Of a DNA stretch of 64,000 nucleotides, positions 10,407 through 64,000 are shown one piece after another. Made by a program: the position numbers and the translations under genes. How positions within the stretch are numbered: position 1 is the stretch's first letter; each line of letters opens with the position of its first letter. The notes below the pieces were generated by a model that was given only the letters and a program-made list of their open reading frames with translations, was not told where the DNA came from and did not search any database. This DNA is from Escherichia phage muut. The stretch is from sequence record NC_052657.1; one strand, given 5' to 3'.

Positions 10407-10492
10407 TGGCGGTAGATGTAGGACTTGAACCTACACGCCGTTTCCGACGACAGTTTAGCAAACTGTTGTGGCTACCATTTCACCAATCTACC
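10407..10492 (-). tRNA. tRNA-Ser (anticodon GCU)
   Basis: 86 nt type II; exact acceptor GGTAGAT/ATCTACC, anticodon arm ACAGT-TTGCTAA-ACTGT, long variable arm, CCA. Confidence 0.7.
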
Positions 10493-10500
10493 GTTTTTAA

Positions 10501-10653
10501 TTATTCAAAACAACCGGAATCTTTTTGTTCTGCTTTTACCATACGAATATTTTTACCATCTTCAGATTGTTGAAGATTAGAATACTCATAAACAACTTTA
10601 TTATTTACAATCTTAACTCCGGTAACAACCTGTCCAATAGTTTTATAATTCAT
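10501..10653 (-). CDS. hypothetical protein (50 aa)
   Basis: Start moved to internal ATG (AGGAG RBS) because longer track ORF overlaps tRNA-Ser(UGA). Confidence 0.4.
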   Translation of the reverse strand: MNYKTIGQVVTGVKIVNNKVVYEYSNLQQSEDGKNIRMVKAEQKDSGCFE

Positions 10654-10671
10654 AAAGCTCCTAGTTGAATT

Positions 10672-10761
10672 TGGAGGAAGATAATGGAGTCGAACCATCA
10701 CCGTATCACTACAATGGGCCAGGGTTCAAACCTGGTTGCGCACCGCTGCGCCCTACCTTCC
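10672..10761 (-). tRNA. tRNA-Ser (anticodon UGA)
   Basis: 90 nt type II; acceptor GGAAGGT/ATCTTCC with one G-U, anticodon arm CCAGG-TTTGAAC-CCTGG, T arm GATGG-TTCGACT-CCATT, CCA. Confidence 0.65.
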
Positions 10762-10824
10762 CGTTATCATACTTTAAATCTAACATAAAACTATCTTGCT
10801 TGTCAAGCAGTTTTTAAAACTTTT

Positions 10825-10906
10825 TGGCCGGGGTGACAGGATTCGAACCTGCATACTCCAATTACTCGGTTAACGCCTGATTAGAAGTCAGGTGAGATAC
10901 ACCCCG
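10825..10906 (-). tRNA. tRNA-Arg-like (anticodon UCU), non-canonical arm order
   Basis: Exact acceptor CGGGGTG/CACCCCG, CCA, T arm GCAGG-TTCGAAT-CCTGT; UCU hairpin sits right after U8-A9 and a D-loop-like segment follows it. Confidence 0.4.
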
Positions 10907-10978
10907 TTTTCACAGTAACTATAACAAAAAACTAAGTAAATGTCAAGATATTTTTACTAAAAATATTATTTAAATTGA

Positions 10979-11084
10979 AGCCTAGTTATGGAATCGAACC
11001 ATATTTCGTATTTAGTTAGACAAAGCGGTCTAACATATTTTTCAGGCTTTGATGGCCTCGGAATTACCAAATACCCTACTAGGC
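10979..11084 (-). ncRNA. tRNA-like element, about 105 nt, with large insertion
   Basis: Exact acceptor GCCTAGT/ACTAGGC and T arm TATGG-TTCGATT-CCATA, no CCA; inner hairpins AGGC-CATCAAA-GCCT and GTTAGAC-CGCTTT-GTCTAAC. Confidence 0.3.
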
Positions 11085-11086
11085 GT

Positions 11087-11171
11087 TGGTGCAAGTGGAG
11101 GGATTCGAACCCTCAAGCATTTAAGCGTTGCGTTTTAAGCACAATGTGTATCACCAATTCCACCACACTTG
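11087..11171 (-). tRNA. tRNA-Leu (anticodon UAA)
   Basis: 85 nt type II; exact acceptor GCAAGTG/CACTTGC, anticodon arm TTGTG-CTTAAAA-CGCAA, T arm GAGGG-TTCGAAT-CCCTC, CCA. Confidence 0.65.
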
Positions 11172-11286
11172 CATATAGGAGATGCATAGCACCTCCTTTT
11201 AAATGGTGGTTCCCCAGGGTTACAATCCCTGCCCTCGACACTTATGAGGTGTGCGCTCTCGTCAGTGAGCTATGGAACCTTGAATA

Positions 11287-32924: not shown

Positions 32925-33260
32925 ATGCCTACATTAGTTGTATTACCTGGGGCAACACCACAAAGACGCTGGGGAAATTATACACTGGTAGATAGTAAAG
33001 ATTTTACATTCGATTGGTGTTGTCATTATATTGCAGGTTTTCAATTTTCCAGTGTTGAAATATGGGCTTCCAATGATCCCATAGCTACCTGGTATGCTTT
33101 AACCAGAGCAAGGTATGAGGGAGAGGTTACTATACTACTCACAAAGAGTGTATGGGACGCATTAGAGAAGGCTTACCTAGAGGATGGTATGGAGAGAGAA
33201 CACATTGATACAATAAAAGCAATGTGTGATATTGTGGAGGATTTAAATGGCAGCAATTAA
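32925..33260 (+). CDS. hypothetical protein (111 aa)
   Basis: Start reset to ATG 32925 (AAGGAGG RBS) so that terminator hairpin is not translated. Confidence 0.4.
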   Translation: MPTLVVLPGATPQRRWGNYTLVDSKDFTFDWCCHYIAGFQFSSVEIWASNDPIATWYALTRARYEGEVTILLTKSVWDALEKAYLEDGMEREHIDTIKAMCDIVEDLNGSN

Positions 33261-34332
33261 CTTATACAACGACACTTACAAAGAAGGTTTCTACCCTGTA
33301 TTTTTGGGAGAACAGTTAGGTATTTTTGATTCTATTAATGTAACATACCCAGAAATGCATCGTCTGTACAAACTACAAAAACAGCAAGATTGGGATGAAA
33401 ACGAAGTAAACTTAGATCAGACACGAAAAGATTTCGTAGCTTGTTCTAAAAGCAACTATGATGTTATGATCAAAAACCTATCCTTCCAATGGGAAAATGA
33501 TTCACTTGCTAAATCAATCATCACTTTGTTTGCACCATTTTTAAGCAACAACGAAGCATGTGCAATGATGATGAAGCAATCAGAAATGGAAGTTTTACAC
33601 GCTTTGACATATTCTGAAATTATTCGTCAGTGTATCCCTAATCCAAATGAAGTTATCGATCAGATTATGGAGAATGAAAGAATCTTCCAGAGGATGGGTA
33701 TAGTTGAAGAGATAATGAGTGATCTGGCAGAGGCAGGACATAAATATGCTCTAGGTCTGATTGAGAAGGATGATAACCTTCGTCTACTGATTCTGAAAGG
33801 AATGATTGCACTTATCGGTCTGGAAGGCATTCAATTCATATCATCTTTTGCTGCAACATTTGCCTTAGCAGAGCAGCAACTGTTTGTAGGTGCAGCTAAA
33901 CTCATTCAAAAAATTATGTTGGATGAACTATTGCACGTTAAAATGGATTATGCTATTATTGATGCACTGCTGAAAGATCCTGTCTGGAGAAAAGTATACG
34001 AAGATAATATCGACGTTCTGACAGAAATTCTTGACACAGTAGTTGGACAAGAGGAAGATTGGTGTGACTATCTGTTTAGTGAAGGAAGGATTATCGTTGG
34101 TGGTAACGCAGAGTTGTTCAAACTTTGGGTTTACTTCAATGCTGCGCCTATCTATCGCAGACTGAAAATGAAACACAAATTCCGTGCACCGAAGAAAAGT
34201 CCACTACCTTGGATGGATGTTTGGTTAAATCCAGATCAAATTCAAGCAGCAGCACAGGAGATCCAAATTACAGCTTACAAACTGAATTCAGCAAATAAAG
34301 ACGTAAGTGATGACGAGGAGTTAGACTTTTAA
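33247..34332 (+). CDS. nrdB: ribonucleotide reductase class Ia small subunit
   Basis: 361 aa with ExxH iron-ligand motifs (EVLHALTYSE, ELLHVKMDY); adjacent to nrdA. Confidence 0.8.
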   Translation: MAAINLYNDTYKEGFYPVFLGEQLGIFDSINVTYPEMHRLYKLQKQQDWDENEVNLDQTRKDFVACSKSNYDVMIKNLSFQWENDSLAKSIITLFAPFLSNNEACAMMMKQSEMEVLHALTYSEIIRQCIPNPNEVIDQIMENERIFQRMGIVEEIMSDLAEAGHKYALGLIEKDDNLRLLILKGMIALIGLEGIQFISSFAATFALAEQQLFVGAAKLIQKIMLDELLHVKMDYAIIDALLKDPVWRKVYEDNIDVLTEILDTVVGQEEDWCDYLFSEGRIIVGGNAELFKLWVYFNAAPIYRRLKMKHKFRAPKKSPLPWMDVWLNPDQIQAAAQEIQITAYKLNSANKDVSDDEELDF

Positions 34333-34726: not shown

Positions 34727-34867
34727 AATGGATGATGTAAGTATTTGTCCTATCTGCGGCGGCACTGGGAATTTTATTGTTAGTATGGAACAATTTATTC
34801 CTTGTTGGAATTGTAACGGCTTAGGTTTCGTTCATACAGAAGAAAAAGAAGAAGAGGAAGATAGTGG
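34727..34867 (+). CDS. small zinc-ribbon protein (46 aa)
   Basis: Sub-cutoff ORF with GAGGAG RBS; CPICGG...CWNCNG. Confidence 0.4.
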
Positions 34868-35190
34868 GAGTTGATATTGCATGGCGTATGTTACAGGGTG
34901 CACCTTTTAATAAATGGGAAGAGGCTGTAGGAGAAGATCCTAGAATTGAAGAAGAATTTGATGGAGATTTTAATTGGTTCTTACAAGAAGGTCTTGATTT
35001 AAGCCGTATCTCACCTTTCTATGACGCTGATGCATCTTATTGCATATATGGGATTTATTTAGAAGGTGGCGAAGGAAGTATAGCTGTAGATCTTGAGCAA
35101 CTAAATAAGAATGCAAAAGAAGCCTACGCACAACTTCTTGAAAAATATAACATTGAAACGGAAACTATTATTTCTCAACACGTTTGGTAA
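34864..35190 (+). CDS. hypothetical protein (108 aa)
   Basis: Track ORF. Confidence 0.4.
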   Translation: MGVDIAWRMLQGAPFNKWEEAVGEDPRIEEEFDGDFNWFLQEGLDLSRISPFYDADASYCIYGIYLEGGEGSIAVDLEQLNKNAKEAYAQLLEKYNIETETIISQHVW

Positions 35191-35203: not shown

Positions 35204-35401
35204 ATGATGCTAGATCAACTGATCAATGCTCCTCGCGTAACAGTAAGTCCAAAAACATTTGCATCACTTTTAGAAGATGCTAGAGAGGTTTATAACTTTA
35301 CTGAAGAAGAGCTTCCTGTTCCTGTTAAAAAAGGTTCCAGATGGTTGTTTTATGAAGGTATTATTTTTACTGAAGGGAATAATTGGAAGGAGACTAAATG
35401 A
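35204..35401 (+). CDS. hypothetical protein (65 aa)
   Basis: Start reset to ATG 35204 (AAGGAGG RBS). Confidence 0.4.
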   Translation: MMLDQLINAPRVTVSPKTFASLLEDAREVYNFTEEELPVPVKKGSRWLFYEGIIFTEGNNWKETK

Positions 35402-36387
35402 AATACTTAGTAACAGGTGGTTTAGGCTTTATTGGAAGTGCGGTAGTTCGTTTCCTGGCTAAAAACACTAAGAATGATATTTACGTTATAGATAAATGGG
35501 GTTACGCTTCAGACCCTAGAAATTTATCAGAAACACCTAATGTAAAGTTTTGTCGTGTTGACTTGACAAATGCTCAGTTAACTGCTAAGATTGTGGCAGA
35601 TGTTAATCCAGATTATATAATGCATCTTGCAGCAGAAAGTCACGTAGATAATTCAATAGCATCACCGAGTGTTTTTATAAATTCAAATATTGTTGGAACA
35701 TTTAATCTTCTAGAAGCTGTTCGTTTAATGGGAGATAAATCAAATCTTAAAATGTTTCATCATATTTCAACAGATGAAGTGTATGGTGATCTGGAAGAAG
35801 GGGATTATCCGTTTACAGAACAGAATCCTTATAAGCCAAGTAGTCCATATGCTGCATCTAAGGCAGCAAGCGATCATTTGGTAAGAGCGTGGCATCGTAC
35901 TTATGGTATTCCGACAGTTATAACAAATTGTTCAAATAATTTTGGAGCGTATCATCATCCAGAAAAACTAATACCTAAAACGATAACAAATATTTTGATG
36001 CATAAACCAATCCCTGTTTATGGCAATGGTCTTCAAGTAAGAGATTGGTTATACGTTGACGATCACGCAGAAGCATTACACCTAGTAGTAACTAAAGGCA
36101 AATCTGGAGAAACATATAATATTGGGAGCAGAAACCCTAGAACTAATATTGATGTAATCTATATGATTTGTGATTATATGGATGCGGTGTATCCATCTGA
36201 AACAGATGCTTGTAGCCTCATTGAGATGGTTACAGATAGGCCTGGGCATGATTTAAGATATGAAGTGAATCCTTATAAGATTGAAAAGGAATTAGGGTGG
36301 AAAGCTAAAGGCACATTTGAAGAAAAACTTTATTCAACCATTGATTGGTATGTAGATAACAAAGAGTGGTGGGAAAATAAAGTTTAA
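35398..36387 (+). CDS. rmlB: dTDP-glucose 4,6-dehydratase
   Basis: GGLGFIGS Rossmann motif, [10 protein letters not shown] (YxxxK), [22 protein letters not shown]; collinear with E. coli RffG/RmlB. Confidence 0.9.
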
Positions 36388-37277: not shown

Positions 37278-37832
37278 ATGATTCAAGCAACAAAAATCGA
37301 AGATTTGTTGATCATTCAACCTGACGTTTACGGAGATGAACGTGGTTTTTTCTTAGAAAGTTTTAATCAGGCTTTATATGATCAATACATAGGTAAACAA
37401 AACTTTGTCCAAGATAACCATTCACGTTCTATTCGAGGAGTTCTACGTGGGCTTCATTTTCAAAAGAAAAACCCACAAGGGAAGTTAGTACGTTGTGTTC
37501 GTGGTGAAGTTTATGATGTTGCTGTAGATATTAGGGTTGATAGTCCAACATTTGGAGAATGGGTAGGTGTTCTCTTATCTGAAAAGAATAAAACACAATT
37601 TTGGATTCCTCCTGGTTTCGCTCATGGCTTTGTTGTGATTAGTGACATTGCTGATTTTGAATATAAATGTACAGAATATTACGATCCGACTTCAGAGTGT
37701 AGTCTTGCGTGGAATGATCCAGATATCAATATTGATTGGGGTTTTGATTTAATCTTTAATGATATTAATTTTAAACCTATCTTGTCACAAAAAGATCAGG
37801 AAGCCAAAACACTAAAGGAGATCATATTTTGA
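37278..37832 (+). CDS. rmlC: dTDP-4-dehydrorhamnose 3,5-epimerase
   Basis: YGDERGFFLESF and RGLHFQ cupin motifs typical of RmlC. Confidence 0.85.
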   Translation: MIQATKIEDLLIIQPDVYGDERGFFLESFNQALYDQYIGKQNFVQDNHSRSIRGVLRGLHFQKKNPQGKLVRCVRGEVYDVAVDIRVDSPTFGEWVGVLLSEKNKTQFWIPPGFAHGFVVISDIADFEYKCTEYYDPTSECSLAWNDPDINIDWGFDLIFNDINFKPILSQKDQEAKTLKEIIF

Positions 37833-38659
37833 CAAAATTTTTAATCTTTGGTTCAAAAGGTCAATTAGGACAATCTTTGGCAAAAGTTGCACCAGAAGAT
37901 GTTATTTTGATTGAAGCAAGTGATATAGACATTACCAACTTTAAAGATGTTATGAATAGTCTTGTACAGCACGTGCCTGATGTTGTTGTGAATTGTGCGG
38001 CTTACACGGCAGTAGATAAAGCTGAAGAAGATGTTAACACCTGTATAAATGTTAATGCATACGGTGCAACAAACATTGCCAAAGCATGTAATGATTTACT
38101 GATACAGTTTGTACATATTTCAACAGACTATGTTTTTGATGGGCATGTTGCTGGCACAGAAGATAGTAAAACAAACCCCTTGAACACCTACGGTTACAGT
38201 AAACAATTAGGTGAAACTTTAGTACAAACAGTTTGTCCTACAGCACTTATTATCAGAACAGCTTCTGTTTATAGTGAATTTGGACATAACTTTTTGAAAA
38301 CTATGTTGGAACGCTACAACGGTGGTCAAAAAGAATTTAATGTAGTATGTGATCATTTATCATGTCCTACTTATGCACCTGATCTTGCAGAAACAATTTT
38401 TAAACTTGTAAAAGATGGTGTAAATAGTAAAATTGTACACTATGCAGGTGCAGATTATATTTCTTGGTATGATTTTGCACGAAAGATATTTCTTGTTATA
38501 GATTTATCTGTTACAGTTAATCCTGTATCTGCTTCAACCTATAATTCCAAAGCAGTCAGACCAGCAACATCTTATTTAAAAACAGATCCTACTTTAAATC
38601 CGCGAAGTGTTGATAGCGGTATTGTAAGAACTTTAACTATACTTTTAAACAAGGAGTGA
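37829..38659 (+). CDS. rmlD: dTDP-4-dehydrorhamnose reductase
   Basis: N-terminal IFGSKGQLG Rossmann motif, STDYVFDG; completes rmlBACD order. Confidence 0.8.
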   Translation: MTKFLIFGSKGQLGQSLAKVAPEDVILIEASDIDITNFKDVMNSLVQHVPDVVVNCAAYTAVDKAEEDVNTCINVNAYGATNIAKACNDLLIQFVHISTDYVFDGHVAGTEDSKTNPLNTYGYSKQLGETLVQTVCPTALIIRTASVYSEFGHNFLKTMLERYNGGQKEFNVVCDHLSCPTYAPDLAETIFKLVKDGVNSKIVHYAGADYISWYDFARKIFLVIDLSVTVNPVSASTYNSKAVRPATSYLKTDPTLNPRSVDSGIVRTLTILLNKE

Positions 38660-51889: not shown

Positions 51890-51960
51890 AACCTCCTGTA
51901 ACGCATTCTAACGCACTTTTTATTTTAGTAATACGTTTCCCTATCTAATGCAAACAAAAG

Positions 51961-51992
51961 CCCCTAGAATCACTTCTAGGGGTTTTATTTTA
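51961..51992. terminator. bidirectional terminator at convergent junction
   Basis: 9-bp hairpin CCCCTAGAA-tcact-TTCTAGGGG flanked by A-run upstream and TTTTATTTT downstream. Confidence 0.65.
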
Positions 51993-52324: not shown

Positions 52325-52353
52325 CACATACAAGAAAACCCGCCGAAGCGGGT
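52325..52353 (-). terminator. rho-independent terminator
   Basis: On minus strand ACCCGC-ttcg-GCGGGT followed by TTTCTTG, just downstream of gene 52361-52684. Confidence 0.55.
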
Positions 52354-52360
52354 TTATGTG

Positions 52361-54603: not shown

Positions 54604-55007
54604 AACTCCTCCAGAAGTTTACCAAGTTTAGTTTTAAATTCATTATCCCACGCTATACGAACTATGTCAAGATCACCTTGTGCATTACGTTTTGTATCTA
54701 AGTAGTAACCACCATGCTCATAGCGGTGTTTTATATGCTCGATCAGACGTTCTTTACCACTCTTGGATAAATAGTCATCAAATTCCCCATTGAAAAGGTC
54801 TAAGATTGTTTGTCTATTATCTCCTAATTGAGTGATTCTAAAACTAATCAAAGATCCCTGTAAACCTATATCTGTTTGTTTAAGAGAAAACCCATGACCA
54901 AAGCCGCCTGTAACTATAACAAGCGGTTTTCCTGTGATAGAGCTTTTAATAACATCTTGCTTAGGTTCTGCCAAAGATGTTAGAAACTCTTTTAACCATT
55001 TGAACAT
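54597..55007 (-). CDS. hypothetical protein (136 aa)
   Basis: Track ORF with AGGAGAG RBS. Confidence 0.45.
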   Translation of the reverse strand: MFKWLKEFLTSLAEPKQDVIKSSITGKPLVIVTGGFGHGFSLKQTDIGLQGSLISFRITQLGDNRQTILDLFNGEFDDYLSKSGKERLIEHIKHRYEHGGYYLDTKRNAQGDLDIVRIAWDNEFKTKLGKLLEELW

Positions 55008-55112
55008 AAACTCTCCTGTGTGGCGTGGCTTTGCCTAAGCGCCGAAGGCGCGGATCAAATATAAGCTGAATTTATTACGCCCAGGTAGCCAGGGCGCATA
55101 AATATCAGAAAT

Positions 55113-55361
55113 TTACCATCGAATAACTATTCGAGTAAAGTTTTCATCGTAATGAGATGTTTCTGTATCAATAAAAGTTGAAAAACCTTCAGCATCCAAG
55201 CTAACTTTTACGAAAGTTGGATAGAGCGTGTATATAGCAGCTTCTCTGTCTCCATCTTTAGCTGCTCTTTCAATATACGCGTAGACGTTTTGTAAACTCT
55301 CTTTTGCTTTGTTAAGTTCTGCGTTTTCTGCCAGTTCTCTCATTTTATCTGCTACAGTCAT
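55113..55361 (-). CDS. hypothetical protein (82 aa)
   Basis: Track ORF. Confidence 0.4.
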   Translation of the reverse strand: MTVADKMRELAENAELNKAKESLQNVYAYIERAAKDGDREAAIYTLYPTFVKVSLDAEGFSTFIDTETSHYDENFTRIVIRW

Positions 55362-55630
55362 TTGTCAGTATCCTTTTCAATAAATCCTGTGGTTTTACAA
55401 GGCACACATTCATACATTTGTCCAACATCTGCAACTACCCAACCCATTCCACTGCAATAAGGGCAGATTGTTTTGTTCTCTTTAGCATACACAGCCAGAA
55501 GTCTTTCTTCTAGCTTATTGTAATCAGCAAGAAGAACATAATCCCCTTCTGGATCTGGTACAATATCACATTGACCAGCAGCACCTTGGCTGTACACCTC
55601 TAAGTCATATCGTGTAACCATTATTCCCAC
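55358..55630 (-). CDS. hypothetical Cys-containing protein (90 aa), paralog of 60765-60989
   Basis: Shares CDIV-DP-G-Y...DY..L block with ORF 60765-60989. Confidence 0.45.
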   Translation of the reverse strand: MGIMVTRYDLEVYSQGAAGQCDIVPDPEGDYVLLADYNKLEERLLAVYAKENKTICPYCSGMGWVVADVGQMYECVPCKTTGFIEKDTDK

Positions 55631-55839
55631 TCCGCAATCAGTTTTGGATTTTCTGCACGAGAATAGAATGTTGTAATGTCACCGTAAGTGTACTCTTGTT
55701 CCGACAGTTTTACAAGAGAGATCATTTCACGATCTGGAGTACCGGAGATCCAATCGAACACAGCAACACCCCGAGGTGTTACATAGAAACCAGATGTATT
55801 ACCCGTAAACTTATCTTTTGCTTTATATAATTTGTACAC
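55621..55839 (-). CDS. hypothetical protein (72 aa)
   Basis: GTG start with GAGGAG RBS; first gene after conserved upstream element. Confidence 0.4.
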   Translation of the reverse strand: MYKLYKAKDKFTGNTSGFYVTPRGVAVFDWISGTPDREMISLVKLSEQEYTYGDITTFYSRAENPKLIAEWE

Positions 55840-55906
55840 TTTCTACTCCTCATAGATAAAATCTATTAAAAACCTGCTATCAATCGGTACAAACAGTTTT
55901 ACTTTT

Positions 55907-55930
55907 CGTAAAAAACATGCTACCCTAATC
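55907..55930 (-). promoter_or_regulatory. conserved upstream element TTAGGGTAGCAT-N2-TTTTTT-N-CG (copy 2)
   Basis: Reverse-complement match to motif at 14971-14994, with further downstream similarity. Confidence 0.35.
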
Positions 55931-56046
55931 TTATATACCGAGCGATAGCGAGGTAGAGAATATTCCATGTTATACATGGAAAGAGTATATGTAATGTTAC
56001 TAACTCTATAACTAACTATATACTCTTTATACCTTACTTACTACTC

Positions 56047-56310
56047 TTATTGAAGTTCAAAGATATCCCCATCTCCATCATATCCATACTCTAACTCTCC
56101 TGTATCATATAATACAATAAAGTCTGTATCATCTTCAATAAAAGATTTAGCATAATCTACTAACTCTTCATTATCTTCATACCCTTCCAGGTACTCAATA
56201 CGACCATTGATACATTTAGCTGCAACAACTCCTGGGCCATTGCTTGGAGTCCACTCACTGTATACTCGCATACCTAATTCTTTAATCATTGTTTGTCTCC
56301 TCATAATCAA
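56047..56310 (-). CDS. hypothetical protein (87 aa)
   Basis: Track ORF. Confidence 0.4.
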   Translation of the reverse strand: MIMRRQTMIKELGMRVYSEWTPSNGPGVVAAKCINGRIEYLEGYEDNEELVDYAKSFIEDDTDFIVLYDTGELEYGYDGDGDIFELQ

Positions 56311-56506
56311 TGTAGTTGTAACACTTATTCTTTAAGAAATCTTCTGCTTGTTTCTTGTGTTTTAGAATGATGCACTTCTCTTTATTCTGTTCTACATCAT
56401 TATGTAGATTGTATAAGTTAGATGCACCATACAGAATACCAATTAACAAAAGCAAAAAGATTGCTGTTGATAACAAAAATTGTTGCAACTTGTTTACAGA
56501 CTTCAT
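56282..56506 (-). CDS. small membrane protein (74 aa), paralog of 61294-61503
   Basis: N-terminal TM helix; shared C-terminal block KE-C-I-LKH...AE-FL...C..Y..Y. Confidence 0.45.
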   Translation of the reverse strand: MKSVNKLQQFLLSTAIFLLLLIGILYGASNLYNLHNDVEQNKEKCIILKHKKQAEDFLKNKCYNYIDYEETNND

Positions 56507-56556
56507 AAACCCTCCTTATCGTTAGTACACATTGATACTAACAAGAAGTTAAGATC

Positions 56557-56733
56557 GTGTCAACATCTTTGTGTTAATTTTATCCACTGTTCACATTCTT
56601 CTTTTGTGTCGTACTCTACAGGCTTCCCTGTATCATTTCCACAACCATCTCCGAACGTAGCCCACCAGGAGAATAGAAAACAAGTTTCTCTTACTCTCCA
56701 CTTATTGGCATAGGGTACAACATAATAACTCAT
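56557..56733 (-). CDS. hypothetical protein (58 aa)
   Basis: Sub-cutoff ORF with AAGGA RBS; start overlaps upstream stop. Confidence 0.35.
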
Positions 56734-56981
56734 AAGATTGTGATCCTTAGCTCATTTTCTAAGGTATGTCTCACACACTCTTTGAAATTGTTATCAATAT
56801 ACACCACACGTACTCCATGAGGTGTGTCTTTACATTCAAACACATTATATACAGTATCAGATAAGACATGTTGTACGTTTACTTGTCCAATGCCATTTTT
56901 AACCACAACCATTACTTTCAGTAAACTTGTATGGTTTTTAACTTCATCTTCTACATATGCTACAACATCTTTGATATTCAT
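56730..56981 (-). CDS. hypothetical protein (83 aa)
   Basis: Track ORF. Confidence 0.4.
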   Translation of the reverse strand: MNIKDVVAYVEDEVKNHTSLLKVMVVVKNGIGQVNVQHVLSDTVYNVFECKDTPHGVRVVYIDNNFKECVRHTLENELRITIL

Positions 56982-57277
56982 GGTTTCTCCTGTTTAAGTA
57001 CGATATAAGATTGACGAGATTTCCATCGCCCTATCTTAACAAGGCAAATAATGCCTCTCTTTAACAGATATTTCATATCTTCGTCATAAGCTGTTTGCAA
57101 TTGCCACTTACTGTTAACAGGAAGAGAACCATGTACCCTTAAATGAGCTAACAGATACTTTCTTCGCTCCTTCCCATAAGGCAGATATTGCCATTCTTTC
57201 TTTGATACAGGTTCATGTACTTTACGATGCCAGTAAGTAAGGTGTCTTCTTTTATGTAAACCCCTATTCCTTACCAT
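56978..57277 (-). CDS. hypothetical basic protein (99 aa)
   Basis: Track ORF; Arg/Lys/His-rich. Confidence 0.4.
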   Translation of the reverse strand: MVRNRGLHKRRHLTYWHRKVHEPVSKKEWQYLPYGKERRKYLLAHLRVHGSLPVNSKWQLQTAYDEDMKYLLKRGIICLVKIGRWKSRQSYIVLKQEKP

Positions 57278-57516
57278 TATACCTCTACCTCCGTTACCCC
57301 AGGATCTCTAGTCCAGGTATAGTAGAGCATACCATCTTCTTTCAGTGCAATGCGATCACTTTCGTCTCGAAGATATAGGTCACATACTACGCGCAGTTGC
57401 GGATCTGATCCGAGTAGTTCTGAAACAATAAGGTCATCACCGCTCATACGAGCAACAATCACTGCATATTGACCAGTATCTGCATCAAAAATTGGTTGTC
57501 CGATGTTTAATTGCAT
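57277..57516 (-). CDS. hypothetical protein (79 aa)
   Basis: Track ORF. Confidence 0.4.
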   Translation of the reverse strand: MQLNIGQPIFDADTGQYAVIVARMSGDDLIVSELLGSDPQLRVVCDLYLRDESDRIALKEDGMLYYTWTRDPGVTEVEV

Positions 57517-57701
57517 TGTGTTGTCTCCTTATTCAGTACGTTGTTTTGTGCTGCGCACCAGCACTCATAAAAACCTTGGGTTAATGGCATAGTGTAGTTT
57601 CCAGAAGGATCTCTTTCGAGATCCCCATCTGCATAACAACCACTACCTAAGAACCATTTTTCAAAATCGGATAAATCATCCCAATCTACACTATTTTTCA
57701 T
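57507..57701 (-). CDS. hypothetical protein (about 64 aa)
   Basis: Start reset to internal ATG to remove 86-nt overlap with upstream gene. Confidence 0.35.
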   Translation of the reverse strand: MKNSVDWDDLSDFEKWFLGSGCYADGDLERDPSGNYTMPLTQGFYECWCAAQNNVLNKETTQCN

Positions 57702-57702
57702 A

Positions 57703-58161
57703 TTATACTGTCTTATACCCGACAATAGCAACCTGATTCGTAGGCTTCCAACGACCAATAATCTCACCAGAAATCTCTGTGCTACCATTTATGTATTGGT
57801 AATGGGTATCATCATGATTAACCCACGCCATAACGTCAAGAGTAGGGGTTTTGACGTGTACCAGTAGTGTAGCCCATTCTGGGGCTTCTTTAATATCCAC
57901 AGAATCTTGCCAATCTTCTTCGATGTGCCAAGTAGGTTCACCATCAACATCTGTAACGAAGAAACGAGCTTTCATACGTTTAAAGAACATTGGTGTATAC
58001 CCATGATCGCACTCTGGGATAAAATCATCCATCGTCTCGTCATAGGTGAAATATTGTCCATCTTTGTAATGAAAAGATGCACAAAATAGTTCATTACGAG
58101 CAGGAACATGCCATACAGCTACAAAACTACGACCATGTGGATAATGTTTAACCTCTTTCAT
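57703..58161 (-). CDS. hypothetical protein (152 aa)
   Basis: Track ORF. Confidence 0.45.
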   Translation of the reverse strand: MKEVKHYPHGRSFVAVWHVPARNELFCASFHYKDGQYFTYDETMDDFIPECDHGYTPMFFKRMKARFFVTDVDGEPTWHIEEDWQDSVDIKEAPEWATLLVHVKTPTLDVMAWVNHDDTHYQYINGSTEISGEIIGRWKPTNQVAIVGYKTV

Positions 58162-58176
58162 AGTTTTCTCCTTATT

Positions 58177-58521
58177 TTATTCAAAAGAATCAATTCGATT
58201 TTGTTCTATGTCAATTGCAGCATCTAAGATAAGTTTTAATGCTTCGAATTGCAAGTCTTCCTCTAAAGAGAAGACATATAAAACAACAGATTCCAAGTAA
58301 GACAGCACCCCAAGACTAAGAGTTGCAATTTCTACTCCTGCATCGGAGAAGCCTGTTTGCAAAATTTCTTTGAAGAAACGTTGTTTATCAACAATAGCAG
58401 ATAAAATAAGCGTTTTACGCTCGTCTGCTGATCGTACTGTGCAGTATATGTTGCTAAAAGAATCTAACCACATTTTGATCATACCTTGTCGGTACATAAG
58501 GATTTCAATATCAGCCAACAT
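58177..58521 (-). CDS. hypothetical protein (about 114 aa)
   Basis: Start reset to internal ATG 58521 preceded by AGGAGA. Confidence 0.4.
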   Translation of the reverse strand: MLADIEILMYRQGMIKMWLDSFSNIYCTVRSADERKTLILSAIVDKQRFFKEILQTGFSDAGVEIATLSLGVLSYLESVVLYVFSLEEDLQFEALKLILDAAIDIEQNRIDSFE

Positions 58522-58522
58522 A

Positions 58523-58711
58523 TTATTTCTCCTCTGGAGAAAGGTTTGCATTAACTTGATAGTAAAAATCAAAATCCTTGTGTTGATCGCACCATTCTTG
58601 AGCTTCTTTAAATGACGCAAATTGCATAGTGAATGTTGCCATCCACGTGTTCATACTTTTATTGAACTTGTCGATAAAAAATGTTTGCATTATTCCTCCC
58701 ATTTTATCCAA
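58523..58711 (-). CDS. hypothetical protein (62 aa)
   Basis: Track ORF. Confidence 0.4.
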   Translation of the reverse strand: MDKMGGIMQTFFIDKFNKSMNTWMATFTMQFASFKEAQEWCDQHKDFDFYYQVNANLSPEEK

Positions 58712-58908
58712 AGGCAGTATTCTGGAACATAAACCTCCTTCCCTTTGTTATTTACAAAGGTGTACTCCACAAATTCTGCTTTATATGTTTTGTTATATTC
58801 CTGTGCTGCTGGCACAGGACATTTTGTAATGCGCGTTTCAGTCCAACGGCGGTGTATAACCGCCTTGTTCTTTGGATCAAACGGATGTATAAAGTGTGTT
58901 TTACTCAT
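58690..58908 (-). CDS. hypothetical protein (about 72 aa)
   Basis: Track ORF, start trimmed to internal ATG. Confidence 0.35.
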   Translation of the reverse strand: MSKTHFIHPFDPKNKAVIHRRWTETRITKCPVPAAQEYNKTYKAEFVEYTFVNNKGKEVYVPEYCLWIKWEE

Positions 58909-59305
58909 GCGCCATTTCCACAAGATTTTTAATCATAGTTTCTCGACAGAGATTCCACATATCTGAAGCAACCATAGAAGCATATTCATCGGGGTTGGAT
59001 TCTGGTAAAACCTCTTTAACTGCTTCTGGCGTTGGGCTGCACATAGCAGGTAGTGCTTTAAGTGCATCTTCAATAGAGAGCTTCTTACCTTCACTGTAAA
59101 TAACTTCGTAAGCATAGTCATTTACATCTTCTGGAATATCTTGATCCAGGTAACGCACAGTCGAGTTATGCATTTTGTTCATAGCTTCACTAACACCAGC
59201 GCCACAAAGCTGTGCAACTTCTTTAGAGATACAGTCACAAATAACAACTTCGTAAGGCTTTCCACCATAATACTGCGCATTATATTTGATTTTAACAGAC
59301 CACAT
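58901..59305 (-). CDS. hypothetical protein (134 aa)
   Basis: Track ORF. Confidence 0.45.
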   Translation of the reverse strand: MWSVKIKYNAQYYGGKPYEVVICDCISKEVAQLCGAGVSEAMNKMHNSTVRYLDQDIPEDVNDYAYEVIYSEGKKLSIEDALKALPAMCSPTPEAVKEVLPESNPDEYASMVASDMWNLCRETMIKNLVEMAHE

Positions 59306-59315
59306 ATTACTCTCC

Positions 59316-60002
59316 TTATTTAACGTGTTTTAGCAATTCAATGTTAGCAGAATAATTTTCACCACAATTGGTAACGCTCAACAGTGACCATTTACAAGAG
59401 AATACACCTTTTAGATGATCTGGAACACACATTAGCGGAACATAAACTGTTTCTGAATCTTGTGTTTGCTCTGTTTTGTTAACATTGCAACAAAATGGCA
59501 ATACATCATCATGAATCATTTTACATTCACTCAAATTATCTAACATATGTGAAACTTGTTCTGAAGTTTCAAACATTTGTGCTTCACAAGCCAGCGCACC
59601 AACCACTTGATAAGCCTCTCCACACAAATCTTCTAGCTCTAAGATACGTTCAGACATAGCTTCAATGATGGCTGATCGTGCTTTCACCTTAGTTTCTGCT
59701 TCTTTAATTTTCTTCTCAAGTTCTGCAATGTACTTCAGTAGTGCACTAACAACATCTGGAGTATTTTCTTGATCATCTTGGGAAATTTTTACCAAAGAAG
59801 AAGCTGCTTTGCAGCGCACTTTAGGCTCTACGTAGCCAAAAGTCATATTTTCCGAAGAAGATTGTTGTGAAAACCAGTGTTTGTTCGAAGAAAACACAGG
59901 TTCATCTTCAAACCAGAACACATCTCCAGTGATATCACGAGCCATGAAATTTGCATTGTCTGGAACTTCGTAACGATGCCCTTCAAACATAATCTCTTTC
60001 AT
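59316..60002 (-). CDS. hypothetical protein (228 aa)
   Basis: Track ORF. Confidence 0.45.
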   Translation of the reverse strand: MKEIMFEGHRYEVPDNANFMARDITGDVFWFEDEPVFSSNKHWFSQQSSSENMTFGYVEPKVRCKAASSLVKISQDDQENTPDVVSALLKYIAELEKKIKEAETKVKARSAIIEAMSERILELEDLCGEAYQVVGALACEAQMFETSEQVSHMLDNLSECKMIHDDVLPFCCNVNKTEQTQDSETVYVPLMCVPDHLKGVFSCKWSLLSVTNCGENYSANIELLKHVK

Positions 60003-60586
60003 TACACATCCTCCATTTGGAACATCTCTTTGTGGTTAGAATAGATCTGTTTGAAAATCTTGTCAAGGCGTTCATATGATTCTTTATGCTCTTGTTTCCA
60101 TCCGTGATTTCGGATTTTATCTGCCAGATCATAAACCTCGCATAAAACTTTGGCAAAGTTGGTATTACCTATAGCACAAGCCTCAAAACCTTGAACTAAA
60201 CCCTCTACATCATACCACGTATAGTCAGAGTCACTAGGAGGATTCCCTGCATCGGCTAAACGTTGCCTCACCCATTCGATACGTTTTTCATTTAAATGGC
60301 ACTTACCTTCTCTACACTCTTGTTCTAATTCTTCTTTAGATTCGTTGAATGGGTGAAGGACAGGAAGTTCTGCTTTTTGCAATTGCTCCAGGTATTCACC
60401 TACAATGCGCATAGCTTCACTGTGTGTACACTTTCTGCCTGTGTGCCAATAACGGAAGATACTTTCTGTTAAACAGATGTTTTTACTAAACATCGCATTG
60501 TCTTTAACATTCGATCTATTAACCCAGTCTAAGTAATATACATAAAACTGCAATAATTCATAACTGCTTGGTATAATTTTACTCAT
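60002..60586 (-). CDS. hypothetical protein (194 aa), member of LLQFY/PFN paralog family
   Basis: Shares LLQFY...LHPFN...QWV-RI blocks with ORFs 61496-61864 and 63647-63997. Confidence 0.45.
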   Translation of the reverse strand: MSKIIPSSYELLQFYVYYLDWVNRSNVKDNAMFSKNICLTESIFRYWHTGRKCTHSEAMRIVGEYLEQLQKAELPVLHPFNESKEELEQECREGKCHLNEKRIEWVRQRLADAGNPPSDSDYTWYDVEGLVQGFEACAIGNTNFAKVLCEVYDLADKIRNHGWKQEHKESYERLDKIFKQIYSNHKEMFQMEDV

Positions 60587-60589
60587 AAC

Positions 60590-60763
60590 CTCTCCTTAAT
60601 TGTGAAAAATGTTATCAATCAATATGACTAATAATACAAGGATAGAAGGGAGTAGGAACAGAAATCTTAACATTATGTGATGCGTGTGAGAAGCGGCTTT
60701 AGCGCCAGCCGCCAATAAGCCTACTAATCCTACAATAAAGAGCAGTTGTTCAGGGACACCCAT
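60590..60763 (-). CDS. small membrane protein (57 aa)
   Basis: Sub-cutoff ORF filling gap; weak RBS. Confidence 0.25.
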
Positions 60764-60764
60764 A

Positions 60765-60989
60765 TTATGGAACACTTGGATACTCCGTAAGTTCGGCTAA
60801 TAGTTGGATATGTGGACACGTGAATTGTTGTCCTGGATAGCGTGAGCTAATATCATCCAGTAAAGCAATCACAGCATTGTGCAATGCTTCGTAATCCTCA
60901 TAATACACCATCTCTCCATTAGGATCTTCAACAATATCACAGTGACAAGCGTGAGCAGTACACGCATCCCATTCCAGACGTTTTACCAT
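60765..60989 (-). CDS. hypothetical Cys-containing protein (74 aa), paralog of 55358-55630
   Basis: Shared CDIVEDPNGEMVYYEDYEAL block. Confidence 0.45.
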   Translation of the reverse strand: MVKRLEWDACTAHACHCDIVEDPNGEMVYYEDYEALHNAVIALLDDISSRYPGQQFTCPHIQLLAELTEYPSVP

Positions 60990-61035
60990 AAACCCTCCTA
61001 TTTATATATCAAGAAACACAAAAGAATAACATCTA

Positions 61036-61284
61036 TCACCAAACCGTTACTACTCCGGTACGTAGCGTCTCTTCATGTCCCCAAATATCCGCTTCAATTG
61101 TAATTACAACCCACTCCGTGTTCCACTGAATACCAGTGATCTCTGTGAGATGTGCAGCTTCACGTTGTAGTGAGGCTGTGTCTGTAAGAGACGCACGTAA
61201 AGCATCCAATTCTTGTTCAATTTTGGTACGTTCTTCTTCGGTAATCGGTGTACCAACACGATCAAAGGTAAAAATATCTAACAT
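61036..61284 (-). CDS. hypothetical protein (82 aa)
   Basis: Track ORF. Confidence 0.4.
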   Translation of the reverse strand: MLDIFTFDRVGTPITEEERTKIEQELDALRASLTDTASLQREAAHLTEITGIQWNTEWVVITIEADIWGHEETLRTGVVTVW

Positions 61285-61293
61285 ACTTCCCTC

Positions 61294-61503
61294 CTAATTA
61301 TAATTCACATAGCGCCCACAATCCTGTTCAAGAAATTTTTCAGCATCCCTTTGGTGCTTTAACACGATGCACTGTTCTTTTTTAGCTTCACTTTCACGAG
61401 CTTCTCTTGCCATATACTCACCTAAACGAATGATACTAGAGAATAACACGTATGCAAGAATAAGACAAACAGTGATTGCACAGAAAGTTTTAAACTTAAC
61501 CAT
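61294..61503 (-). CDS. small membrane protein (about 69 aa), paralog of 56282-56506
   Basis: Start reset to ATG 61503 (GGAGGA RBS); TM helix plus shared C-terminal block. Confidence 0.45.
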   Translation of the reverse strand: MVKFKTFCAITVCLILAYVLFSSIIRLGEYMAREARESEAKKEQCIVLKHQRDAEKFLEQDCGRYVNYN

Positions 61504-61864
61504 TGTATTCCTCCATATCACGAATACGATCAATCACCCATTGTACACGTTCTTTATTAAGGTGTGCAATGCCTAGTTCTGTTTCCGTAAAGTAGTGCGA
61601 GAAATCCGTATTAAACGGATGTAAATGGTTCAAACCCGCTTTCTTAAATTGTTCCTTCATTTCCTCTCGTACAGAGGATTGGAGCTTTGATACATTCTCA
61701 ACATCTTTTATCCAAGCAATATTGTACAAGAAGTCTACAAGACACGTGCAAAGACCATAATGCTTTTTGCTAAAGTTTGTATCTTCTTGTTCTAACCACC
61801 ACTCATAAAATTGTAGCAAATAGGGGCTGCTTTTCATGCTACACACTTTACTATTCTCTTGCAT
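61496..61864 (-). CDS. hypothetical protein (122 aa), LLQFY/PFN paralog family
   Basis: Shares blocks with 60002-60586 and 63647-63997. Confidence 0.45.
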   Translation of the reverse strand: MQENSKVCSMKSSPYLLQFYEWWLEQEDTNFSKKHYGLCTCLVDFLYNIAWIKDVENVSKLQSSVREEMKEQFKKAGLNHLHPFNTDFSHYFTETELGIAHLNKERVQWVIDRIRDMEEYNG

Positions 61865-61873
61865 GACTTCTCC

Positions 61874-62173
61874 TTAATACCAGTCTACGATCACTGAATC
61901 TACAAAGCCCTCTTTGGTGTTTAAAGCATACACCTTACTAAGCCCATGCTCTCGTAGTGCTTCCATAGCAAGATCAATCAAATCAACTTGTCGTTTCTTT
62001 GCTTGTTCATTTTTTGGATAGTCATCCAAACCGAAAACAGATGGTTTAAATGCTTTGGAGTATTTGCCAGTCTTAGCCTGATCATAACAGTCCTGAATAA
62101 TTTCCTCAATAGGAAACCATAAACCTTCTCCACTTTGCTTTGCAATACAGCGCAGTTTTTCTGTAATAGTCAT
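61874..62173 (-). CDS. hypothetical protein (99 aa)
   Basis: Track ORF. Confidence 0.4.
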   Translation of the reverse strand: MTITEKLRCIAKQSGEGLWFPIEEIIQDCYDQAKTGKYSKAFKPSVFGLDDYPKNEQAKKRQVDLIDLAMEALREHGLSKVYALNTKEGFVDSVIVDWY

Positions 62174-62382
62174 TCTTCCTCTCCTTTCAATTTACACTCA
62201 AAGATACCATTCTTAATGTTATCTGTCAAATAAAGGCTATCTTCTATCTCTTCTTTTGTATACACATAAGCCTCCTTTTCCACGTCTGTCAGACCTTGCA
62301 TCGGAGCTAGTAGCCACCAACCCCGCCAGTCAAACATAGGAGACTTATCAGATACACGAAGAATGTATCTGTCATTACACAT
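62170..62382 (-). CDS. hypothetical protein (70 aa)
   Basis: Track ORF. Confidence 0.4.
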   Translation of the reverse strand: MCNDRYILRVSDKSPMFDWRGWWLLAPMQGLTDVEKEAYVYTKEEIEDSLYLTDNIKNGIFECKLKGEEE

Positions 62383-62385
62383 ATA

Positions 62386-62838
62386 TTATACGATGTTCAC
62401 ACTAATATCTGCAACACCAACAAGAGAATAGACTTCAACTACACTCTGTGTACGATCCAGCTTGTAACGTTTCGCCTCTTTTTCAACTTCCTCACGGGAG
62501 ATGGTTTCCATGATCGGAACTCCATCAACTACAAGCAGGTATTTTTCTTCGTGTTTACTTTTTGGTGCTTCCTCTAAGACTTCTACAAAATACTCAAACT
62601 CACTTTTTACGAGCAACGTGTAACACTGAAGAAAGTCTCCTTCATTTTGAGCGATAATTTCTTGTTCTCCTGCTAAGGATTGCAAAGCAGTGACACCATA
62701 CCAATCATCCACATCTAATACACGAAAATAGGAATCACCTAAAAAAGAAGCAATCCTGCTATTGCACTCAGACATATTAGCAAACTTACGGATATAAGAT
62801 GGGTTTTTAAAACGATACACTTTACCAATTTCAAACAT
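62386..62838 (-). CDS. hypothetical protein (150 aa)
   Basis: Track ORF with AAGGAG RBS. Confidence 0.45.
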   Translation of the reverse strand: MFEIGKVYRFKNPSYIRKFANMSECNSRIASFLGDSYFRVLDVDDWYGVTALQSLAGEQEIIAQNEGDFLQCYTLLVKSEFEYFVEVLEEAPKSKHEEKYLLVVDGVPIMETISREEVEKEAKRYKLDRTQSVVEVYSLVGVADISVNIV

Positions 62839-62859
62839 TACACAACTCCTTATTGTTCA

Positions 62860-63027
62860 AGAGTAAAAGGAATGATTTCACCATAGCTGTATTGCATGGC
62901 ATTCACTTCTGCTTCTGCACGTTGTGCTAGTTCTAATGTTGCACAGATTTTATAAGGTACAGTGCTGCATTGGCTCCAGCCTGGGGGTATTCTTTGTTAC
63001 TAAGTACACAGTAGTTTGTTTATCCAT
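62860..63027 (-). pseudogene. small gene interrupted by +1 frame change at a C5 homopolymer
   Basis: ATG 63027 with AGAGGA RBS opens a 25-codon frame; a 44-codon frame continues in +1 register; junction at CCCCC 62984-62988. Confidence 0.35.
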
Positions 63028-63041
63028 CTTCTTTTCCTCTT

Positions 63042-63257
63042 TTAAACAGTATATTCGTGTGGAAGGAAAACATAGTCTTCTCCTTCAACAACATCAACTA
63101 CTTCCCACTTCCAGCCAGGTACTTGGCTCATTGTCTTGAATGACACATAAGCAACTCCGCTGTAAGCGATATCGGCATCTAACATAAGAGGGAAAGCAAC
63201 GTGTGTCAACCCCAGATAACCACAATTATTTTCAATACACACCTGAATGCTTTTCAT
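63042..63257 (-). CDS. hypothetical protein (about 71 aa)
   Basis: Start reset to internal ATG 63257 (GGAG RBS) to remove overlap. Confidence 0.4.
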   Translation of the reverse strand: MKSIQVCIENNCGYLGLTHVAFPLMLDADIAYSGVAYVSFKTMSQVPGWKWEVVDVVEGEDYVFLPHEYTV

Positions 63258-63258
63258 G

Positions 63259-63576
63259 TTATGCTCCATTAAAGACGGGGCGCGTAGCGTTACGTTCATC
63301 ATCAACTGTAATAAGGTTTTTCATAACCATAACACCCTGAATATAGCCTAGCCAACGATGGCGTTTGGTTTCAGACATACCATTACACCCATCCTGAATT
63401 TCATTCAACATCCACAGTAAGTGGGAAACACCTGTTTCACTAGTATCTGGATCTTCTACAGAACTAAGCATAGTTTCATAGCGTTCACAAATTTCTGGGT
63501 AGAATTCATAGTCCTGTTGTACATCTCGCATTTCTCGAATGGAGTGAGGATCAATATACAAAGCTAAGGTTCTCAT
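63259..63576 (-). CDS. hypothetical protein (105 aa)
   Basis: Track ORF. Confidence 0.4.
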   Translation of the reverse strand: MRTLALYIDPHSIREMRDVQQDYEFYPEICERYETMLSSVEDPDTSETGVSHLLWMLNEIQDGCNGMSETKRHRWLGYIQGVMVMKNLITVDDERNATRPVFNGA

Positions 63577-63646
63577 TTACACCTCTCATTAGTAGTTTGT
63601 TATGCGCGATATTGCATATCTTATGGAACACAGTGTACAGACATTT

Positions 63647-63997
63647 CTATTCAATGCAAGCATTATTTGCATCTTCGATTCTGTCTTTCACCCATTGAAG
63701 ACGTAACGTGTTGGTATGACACGCCAAGTCTATACACTCTGAAAGGTAATCCATGCAATCTACATTGAACGGAAGATTGTAGTCCAGTCCTGCACATGTA
63801 AATTGTTTCCTCATTTCGTATTTCAAACTATCCAACAAACGATCACGCCATCTTTTATCTTCTTCTCTAGTTGTCTCACCAACAAAATCATCTACATAAT
63901 CTACCAGACAACCACATAAGCCACTCGTTGTGCGATTCATTGCAGGATAGTTGGCAATCCATGCTTTATAGAAGCGAAGCAATGTTGCACTACTCAA
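63647..63997 (-). CDS. hypothetical protein (116 aa), LLQFY/PFN paralog family
   Basis: Shares LLRFY...GLCGCLVD...LPFN...LQWVKDRI blocks with 61496-61864. Confidence 0.45.
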   Translation of the reverse strand: MSSATLLRFYKAWIANYPAMNRTTSGLCGCLVDYVDDFVGETTREEDKRWRDRLLDSLKYEMRKQFTCAGLDYNLPFNVDCMDYLSECIDLACHTNTLRLQWVKDRIEDANNACIE

Positions 63998-64000
63998 CGG

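Follow-up and report, generated by a model that had tools for sequence, protein, structure and literature searches.

The minus-strand block of small genes at the end of a 64,000-nt stretch of the genome of Escherichia phage muut (NC_052657.1; this whole stretch is called the window, and all coordinates are given on it) contains three families of paralogous genes, seven genes altogether. The phage is a phi92-like Justusliebigvirus (a myovirus), and the block is a terminus-proximal accessory region, whose paralogs stem from old duplications and module shuffling and are under purifying selection. As judged by sequence comparison, family 1 is a large, phage-restricted domain family without a detectable relative of solved structure. 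This picture of the block, taken jointly with the roles proposed below for the three families, is our best explanation, and it has about an even chance of being correct. The seven genes, named after their phi92 orthologs (gp), are as follows.

61496-61864, minus strand: family 1, gp006 ortholog, 122 amino acids (aa), the entire protein being the predicted all-alpha domain; profile E=4.9e-36; ribosome-binding site (RBS) AAGGAG; ratio of non-synonymous to synonymous substitution rates (dN/dS) 0.05-0.14
60002-60586, minus strand: family 1, gp010 ortholog, 194 aa; profile E=2.5e-30 for residues 3-115; phrog_27059 and phrog_2510; dN/dS 0.06-0.11
63647-64000, minus strand, 5' end cut by the window edge: family 1, terminal copy, ortholog of EmilieFrey bas61_0145 and of the first gene of ESCO5; profile E=1.5e-31
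61294-61503, minus strand: family 2, gp007 ortholog, 69 aa; BLASTP E=2.4e-8 to gp022; Smith-Waterman z=16.1; maximum Kyte-Doolittle (KD) hydropathy over 19 residues 2.55
56282-56506, minus strand: family 2, gp022 ortholog, 74 aa; phrog_23204, with a cross-match to phrog_15662; C-x17-C block
60765-60989, minus strand: family 3, gp008 ortholog, 74 aa; N-terminal module (residues ~1-46) and a C-terminal tail of its own; Smith-Waterman z=9.7 to gp025
55358-55621, minus strand: family 3, gp025 ortholog, 87 aa; the same N-terminal module and a putative C-terminal DnaJ-type zinc finger

The initial annotation of this DNA, made from the sequence alone, had grouped the genes in this way, and the grouping was confirmed: the seven open reading frames (ORFs) are present on the minus strand at or near the coordinates first reported, and the three similarity groups are real by BLASTP, by Smith-Waterman comparison with shuffled sequences and by reciprocal PHROG profile matches. 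All-vs-all BLASTP, run with the 375 ORFs of >=40 aa in the window, returned all claimed pairs, i.e. the terminal copy with gp006 (E=2.6e-18; 37% identity over 109 aa), gp006 with gp010 (E=2.4e-9), the terminal copy with gp010 (E=6e-7), gp007 with gp022 (45% over 33 aa), and gp008 with gp025 (E=2.8e-4; 36% over 44 aa); the remaining matches comprised one unrelated enzyme pair, a short zinc-ribbon ORF matching the gp025 C-terminus, and three marginal matches. In the Smith-Waterman comparison, for which 5,000 composition-preserving shuffles were used, the family 1 pairs scored z=27.8, 16.4 and 12.2, and the family 3 value given above corresponds to a Gumbel p of ~2e-6. Within each family the PHROG profiles match each other reciprocally, with E-values for the window proteins down to 1e-138. 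The motifs LLQFY, GLCxCLVD, PFN and QWVxDRI of family 1, and CDIV-DP-G of family 3, were found as originally quoted.

It is highly improbable that the similarities arose by chance or from low complexity, or that the duplicates are decaying, functionless copies. The weak BLASTP value of family 3, taken alone, would fit the former; however, the shared blocks are compositionally ordinary, none of the 5,000 shuffles reached any observed score, the PHROG matches are reciprocal, and family 1 has 734 homolog clusters (see below). Shine-Dalgarno sites precede all six complete genes, and the dN/dS values against relatives are 0.03-0.36 for all seven; in addition, the frames are intact with an RBS in all examined relatives. 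The genes are real, which also argues against decay.

Escherichia phage EmilieFrey (Bas61) shares 98.8% identity with window positions 55000-64000, and ~120 phi92-like and Phapecoctavirus genomes (subfamily Stephanstirmvirinae) match as well. The phi92 record begins at the physical left end with a 343-bp direct terminal repeat (1-343), followed by gp001-gp036, all of which are small and on the same strand. When phi92 was mapped to the window and the EmilieFrey locus, the minus-strand block, from ~52.4 kb to the window end, corresponded to gp001-gp036, ~36 small ORFs read inward from the terminal repeat; phi92 1-565 maps ~1 kb past the window end, and the terminus is predicted ~1 kb beyond base 64000. 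The block, which had been described as part of the right arm, is therefore the left-terminal small-gene region. A repeat scan detected no long DNA repeats in the block, and the duplications are therefore old. The downstream end of the block is marked by two hairpins, both among the strongest of the terminator scan.

52336-52355, no strand: bidirectional terminator-like hairpin at the downstream end of the minus-strand block
51957-51986, no strand: second bidirectional terminator-like hairpin, where the plus-strand genes converge with the minus-strand block

Terminator-like sites are about four-fold in excess within 51.5-64 kb (23 found, 5.8 expected), and the GC skew switches sign at ~52 kb, where the block meets the plus-strand genes.

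A family 1 profile was built on 111 sequences and used for hmmsearch of the window genes; all three genes match it over the full length with the signature L..FY, GLC, EM..QF..AGL, PFN and H.N..R..WV, gp010 having NIC instead of GLC; the signature of the domain in general further includes Y..E and reads CH.N..R..WV at its end. In gp010 the domain covers residues ~3-115 (nt ~60242-60580) and is followed by an acidic C-terminal extension of ~78 aa (isoelectric point, pI, 4.9). The frame of the terminal copy is open to base 64000, and the TTG at 63997 is not its start; the complete gene encodes 122-124 aa in EmilieFrey and ESCO5. The terminal copy is 96% identical to that of ESCO5 in nucleotides (13 differences in 348 nt), and window positions 63611-64000 at 93.4%. 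EmilieFrey carries a fourth family 1 gene, bas61_0144, directly outside the region that matches the window; in this phage, too, a fourth copy is probable directly beyond the window end.

In the 111-member alignment P83, F84 and R106 are invariant; L16, F19, Y20, G37, L38, C39, E68, Q72, F73, L78, N103, W109 and V110 are conserved in at least 90% of the members, and Y91, E94 and H101 in 77-87% (C39 in 110, Q72 and N103 in 103 each, H101 in 86 and R106 in 111 of the 111 members). The domain comprises ~105 aa, is all-alpha, soluble and mildly acidic (median pI 5.2). The AlphaFold2 model of gp006 has a predicted local distance difference test score (pLDDT) of 91, a predicted template-modelling (TM) score of 0.83, and six helices (14-25, 32-35, 38-53, 55-75, 88-97 and 104-121). 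Fold matches in BFVD were uncharacterised phage proteins only (TM-scores of 0.65-0.72), from phages of Escherichia, Pectobacterium, Rhizobium, Burkholderia, Achromobacter, Delftia and Pseudomonas. None of the 111 members matches Pfam, and the sequence searches of NCBIfam and PDB were likewise empty.

When 1.84 billion proteins were searched with a profile made from the window members, 734 representative clusters matched at E<=1e-3, nearly all of them from phages; most of the homologs are stand-alone proteins of 100-125 aa, and tblastn located family 1 at 569 places in 225 phage records, all annotated as 'hypothetical'. For gp006, gp008 and gp025, word-indexed searches gave near-identical proteins alone, and the breadth of family 1 emerged from the exhaustive profile search. 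A strict degenerate DNA motif, which is carried by 26% of the known family 1 members, was found once in 185,579 genomes representing bacterial and archaeal species, versus nine viral stretches, and the single cellular locus, in a metagenome-assembled genome, lies beside ORFs resembling phage tail-fibre genes. Family 1 is thus essentially phage-borne and, with few exceptions at most, confined to phages of Proteobacteria. In some phages two or three family 1 domains occur within a single polypeptide.

The number of family 1 copies, as counted by tblastn or hidden Markov model (HMM), is two in phi92 and Bas60, four in EmilieFrey, Eryne and Paula, and five in ESCO5, the highest number being seven in phiWec181 and PsgM04F. 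Yersinia phage JC221 carries four tandem copies (3347-4661), which are mutually closest (43-53% identity) and therefore represent a lineage-specific amplification; the third copy is under-annotated in its record (coding sequence 4175-4315, domain ~4001-4315). At the terminus, EmilieFrey, and probably also this phage, compared with phi92 contains a 772-bp cassette, consisting of a promoter and two tandem family 1 genes, exactly between the terminal leader and gp001. The part absent from phi92 starts at window ~63698 and extends past the window end in this phage; next to it lies the segment that phi92 retains.

63622-63697, minus strand: deletion scar kept in phi92 (phi92 566-641 aligns), comprising the last 17 codons of the terminal family 1 gene and 25 nt downstream

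The scar translates to LQWVKDRIEDANNACIE followed by a stop, without a gene body upstream. Since phi92 keeps this 17-codon scar of the second gene, it has lost by deletion a cassette that is ancestral; in Bas60, the terminal gene has no match. Among 119 related genomes surveyed for this slot, both genes are present in ~20, about one gene's worth is present in a group that includes Bas62, the Phapecoctaviruses have the second gene only, and phi92, VEcB, PHB05 and PD06 have the flanks only. Between the two genera, Justusliebigvirus and Phapecoctavirus, the terminal copy is 90-96% identical (protein and DNA), versus identities of at most 73%, or undetectable by BLASTN, for the rest of the block; this reflects either a recent inter-genus exchange at the genome end or an unusually strong constraint. 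Such turnover and amplification, in combination with dispensability and purifying selection, are the pattern expected of accessory, conflict-type genes.

Family 1 was also located in other phage types. In ESCO5 (Phapecoctavirus) and EmilieFrey, the terminal leader is followed by a family 1 gene as the first of the genome, and in several Phapecoctavirus records such a gene lies at ~360-1,000; the first terminal copy of EmilieFrey is preceded by a sigma70-like promoter (TTGTAA-17-TATAAT) and an AAGGAG RBS. In the N4-like Erwinia phage Ea9-2, the gene lies in the left-end region upstream of RNAP1, and in the T4-like JC221 in a stretch of small ORFs between the ligase and the baseplate hub. In a P22-like prophage, the domain is embedded in a 402-aa modular protein, in the gene order repressor, N, cIII, Arf, Erf, Abc2, a faint Ead/Ea22 gene, the fusion, DUF551 and integrase; we take this site, from the general genetics of lambda and P22, to be the non-essential early-left (P_L) 'ea' region. 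The domain is also found fused to DUF551. The fusion proteins were considered as E. coli prophage genes, but this was rejected since 5,426 complete E. coli genomes gave no match; the nearest phage record is Salmonella phage GE_vB_TR. No modules common to the other genes of the block and the prophage fusion proteins were found. Judged by position, family 1 is thus placed in early or non-essential regions of four unrelated phage architectures (phi92-, N4-, T4- and P22-like).

For the function of family 1, we propose that the proteins are probably made early and in the cytoplasm, where they would act on a host component, either a protein or a small ligand, through a predicted pocket. This pocket would be lined by the near-invariant C39, E68, Q72, Y91, E94, H101 and R106, which from their conservation are candidate functional-site residues, and the hypervariable hairpin of helices 3 and 4 would set the specificity of each paralog. 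The role would be host manipulation or counter-defence, not core replication; as a candidate, such a host-directed or counter-defence role is reasonable but unproven. In favour of an accessory, conflict-type role are the dispensability, the copy-number polymorphism, the recurrent amplification and the phage-restricted distribution. A bolder version, which we regard as rather doubtful, is that family 1 represents a new, structurally novel class of effectors that neutralise or subvert a host factor, most attractively of the immune system, with a repertoire tuned by amplification and loss, and that the polymorphic terminal slot is a determinant of host range or defence sensitivity exchanged between genera.

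Several observations weigh against the proposed role. Many conserved polar positions of family 1 are helix caps (S13, G37, N85, N103) and may be structural, so that the pocket is a putative one; H101 is kept in just 77% of the members, being replaced by Tyr or Arg in some. The seven proteins match none of the known anti-defence, defence and host-shutoff families by sequence or fold, and a PADLOC scan returned nothing meaningful. Phi92-like phages are very sensitive to restriction-modification systems, as observed by BASEL phenotyping (PMC8594841), which makes it unlikely that the genes counter restriction effectively. Bas60 is sensitive to type I (cyclic GMP-AMP, cGAMP) cyclic-oligonucleotide-based antiphage signalling (CBASS; 10.1101/2025.07.12.664507), and the two core copies that it retains evidently fail to neutralise this system. 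Since the third copy is cut by the window end, a fourth copy in this phage would fall outside the sequence seen. The initial annotation had also counted the genes as early and noted that duplicated small early genes often serve host takeover or anti-defence; a function of that kind is plausible here. That the genes are early is supported indirectly by the terminus position, the inward transcription, the ~36 small ORFs, the bidirectional terminators at the end of the block and the placement in other phages, such that the timing, and likewise the accessory status of the block, would follow from position and analogy. Sigma70-like sites are not enriched in the block (45, versus 42.7 expected from shuffles); no transcriptome for this phage group was found in the literature.

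Three other roles were weighed for family 1. C39 is located at the N-terminus of helix 3, a position that lowers the thiol pKa in many enzymes, and the protein might be a small thiol-dependent enzyme in which C39, together with H101, N103 and Q72, modifies or cleaves a host protein or nucleotide. The conservation counts given above for these residues and for R106 fit such a site; however, H101 is exchanged in some members as noted, N103 and G37 may be structural as helix caps, the small all-alpha domain has no fold match to any hydrolase or transferase, and no Pfam enzyme family matched, so that we consider an enzyme of this kind unlikely. A phage-internal regulator, i.e. a nucleic-acid- or RNA-polymerase-binding protein in an early-to-middle switch, is improbable too: a helix-turn-helix family was not detected in the Pfam searches, the proteins are acidic, and unlike core regulators they occur in 0-7 copies, are lost without consequence (phi92, Bas60) and are common to unrelated phage types. 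The small size, and the fusions of two or three domains in tandem that suggest an oligomeric unit, would suit a sponge for nucleotide immune signals (Tad/Acb-like), that is, a small oligomer with ligand pockets at its interfaces, with the invariant Arg and the aromatic and amide residues as potential nucleotide contacts; the sponges known so far are short, form homo-oligomers and were discovered by way of fusions (10.1101/2025.07.12.664507). Similarity to Tad1/2, Acb2/4, Sequestin and Lockin could not be shown, the net charge is negative, and Bas60 with its two copies is still sensitive to cGAMP CBASS, which makes a sponge very unlikely.

Family 2 combines an N-terminal hydrophobic segment (19-mers with KD values of 2.55-3.0) with a shared C-terminal block, KE.CI.LKH...AE.FL...C..Y..Y, whose two conserved Cys are 17 residues apart. 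For gp022, the phi92 record gives a SignalP 3.0 probability of 0.985. The gp007 start and the gp006 stop have 8 nt in common, and in ESCO5 there is the same overlap with a family 1 gene; that a small membrane-protein gene regularly follows a family 1 gene was rejected, since only the orthologous gp006-gp007 pair (including ESCO5) shows this arrangement. These peptides are probably exported, or else anchored in the membrane, and their C-terminus would form a disulfide-stabilised hairpin; they would act at the envelope, e.g. in superinfection exclusion or envelope modulation; from the sequence features, we infer such a peptide as the most economical reading of this family.

For family 3, the proposed pairing of 55358-55630 with 60765-60989 holds for the shared block but not for the whole genes. 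The annotated start of gp025 is the ATG at 55621, not 55630. The similarity of gp008 and gp025 is confined to the first ~45 residues, and phmmer with the N-terminal module alone gave E ~1e-4 in both directions; the module is also visible in the DNA as a 38-nt repeat of 76% identity. Since only this module is common to both genes, the relationship is module sharing and not simple gene duplication. The AlphaFold2 model of gp008, of low confidence (pLDDT 59), shows a beta-hairpin at 19-29 (the CDIV...V.Y block) followed by a helix at 30-50. Full-length gp025 was found solely in Justusliebigvirus, and its residues 53-87 alone match small Phapecoctavirus proteins without the module, and in relatives the gp008-type module bears different tails, as in P0180 and in an ESCO5 form of 148 aa. 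The C-terminus of gp025 contains two CXXCXGXG motifs (CPYCSGMG and CVPCKTTG) and is noted as a 'DnaJ-like zinc finger' in the phi92 record; its match to Pfam DnaJ_CXXCXGXG (PF00684) is weak (14.9 bits; cut-off 32.7), and the weak matches to Anti-TRAP (PF15777) and NF058604 are also below the curated cut-offs. The module is probably a hairpin-helix unit for interaction or oligomerisation that would bear different C-terminal effectors, such as the putative zinc finger in gp025.

Two further assignments for family 3 were rejected. The gene gp023 (56047-56289) was considered as a third member (p=0.06-0.12). For gp008, a role as a Lar-like restriction alleviation protein was indicated by a single weak, partial match to phrog_3592 (first ~50 of 182 positions; E=7.7e-4), to which gp025 gave no match, and was unsupported by Pfam (no match to Lar-like PF14354 at E<=1). 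A metagenomic Logan contig of 1,550 nt (P0179) encodes an exact chimera of gp008 (1-32) and gp023 (38-80) with a YED microhomology joint, which is either a natural deletion of ~4.5 kb or an assembly artefact. A 48-aa ORF at 34728-34874 (plus strand) with the motifs CPICGGTG and CWNCNGLG is similar to gp025 in its C-terminal half (BLASTP E=1.8e-4), and another small zinc-ribbon gene may thus be present there.

Host-takeover modules close to a genome terminus are represented by SPO1 gp37-60 within the terminal redundancy, the pre-early region of T5, and the class I genes of T7 (0.3/Ocr). The block resembles these in its many small ORFs at a genome end, which are directed inward, individually dispensable and variable between relatives, and in at least one copy with a sigma70-type promoter; unlike homologous modules, there is no kinship in sequence or fold, the likeness being one of position, gene size and dispensability alone, and in contrast to a redundancy of the SPO1 type, the terminal repeat of phi92 is just 343 bp with the genes outside of it. 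The 'ea' region of lambdoid and P22-like phages carries the family 1 domain within modular proteins (between Erf/Abc2 and integrase) and fused to DUF551, and the annotators of phi92 labelled gp011 and gp012, beside family 1, 'Eaa-like'; however, family 1 is neither Pfam Ead_Ea22 nor DUF551. As the ea proteins are themselves mostly without an assigned function, this comparison is one of context, not of mechanism. DnaJ- and anti-TRAP-like zinc proteins are comparable with the C-terminus of gp025 only, whereas its N-terminal module has no counterpart there. With respect to PHROGs, the window proteins are members by profile score of phrog_2510, phrog_27059 and phrog_6418 (family 1), of phrog_15662 and phrog_23204 (family 2) and of phrog_23083 and phrog_22955 (family 3), for which no function is annotated; the links of the PHROGs of the three families into superfamilies and the within-genome paralogy are not part of the PHROG annotation.

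Two small proteins of the same phage group, formerly 'hypothetical' as well, show that such genes engage host immunity (PMC11564622; 10.1101/2022.06.09.495361). Ksap2 (Bas60_220) is the phage protein sensed by Klebsiella Avs2 (KpAvs2 trigger; PMC11564622), and the window encodes a homolog at 32925-33257 (plus strand; 111 aa; 94.6% identical to bas60_0220) between the alpha (30623-32884) and beta (33247-34332) genes of a class I ribonucleotide reductase. Membership of Ksap2 in families 1-3 was rejected, in view of its position between the reductase genes, the lack of an HMM match to family 1, and its narrow taxonomic range. Atd1, of the Stephanstirmvirinae, is a MazG-like pyrophosphatase (10.1101/2022.06.09.495361) and was rejected as a family 1 protein, since none of the seven proteins matches the MazG family.

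Duplicated small genes are common in phage early regions, and in large virulent phages their occurrence is ordinary; the main product of this analysis is family 1 as a sharper target, which is confidently modelled, has hundreds of homolog clusters and several independent expansions, and ranges over phi92-like, Phapecoctavirus, T4-like, N4-like and P22-like phages. Together with its gain and loss at the position of the genome's first gene, these features are, in population-genetic terms, hallmarks of conflict genes. The BASEL phages Bas60, Bas62 and Bas61 constitute a natural series of zero, about one and two terminal copies, respectively, in which the conflict idea could be tested, and a function, if found, would annotate hundreds of phage 'hypothetical proteins' together.

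Other features of the window were recorded. The gp001 homolog (63259-63576, minus strand; 105 aa) is without the N-terminal module of EmilieFrey bas61_0146 (152 aa) because of an indel of ~142 nt between window 63027 and 63622; in ESCO5, the gp001-type N-terminal module is a separate gene (785-994; 69 aa). In the Eryne record, the gp003 homolog (62386-62838, minus strand) bears the PHROG-based annotation 'goF mRNA metabolism modulator', which is a putative label. The other clear paralog pair in the window (35398-36387 and 37829-38659, plus strand; E=5e-7) is annotated in Bas60 as dTDP-glucose 4,6-dehydratase and dTDP-4-dehydrorhamnose reductase, an ordinary kinship of sugar-nucleotide enzymes. 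A cluster of 15 tRNA genes is located at 8242-11279 (minus strand; Ile, two Met, two Leu, Phe, Pro, Gln, Gly, Thr, Asn, Tyr, Lys and two Ser). Five 'Campylobacter phage' records (MG065639, MG065656, MG065689, MG065645 and MG065650; A150, C3, A110a, A145 and B15) are near-identical to these coliphages; they list Campylobacter jejuni as host and probably represent mislabelled or contaminating coliphages.

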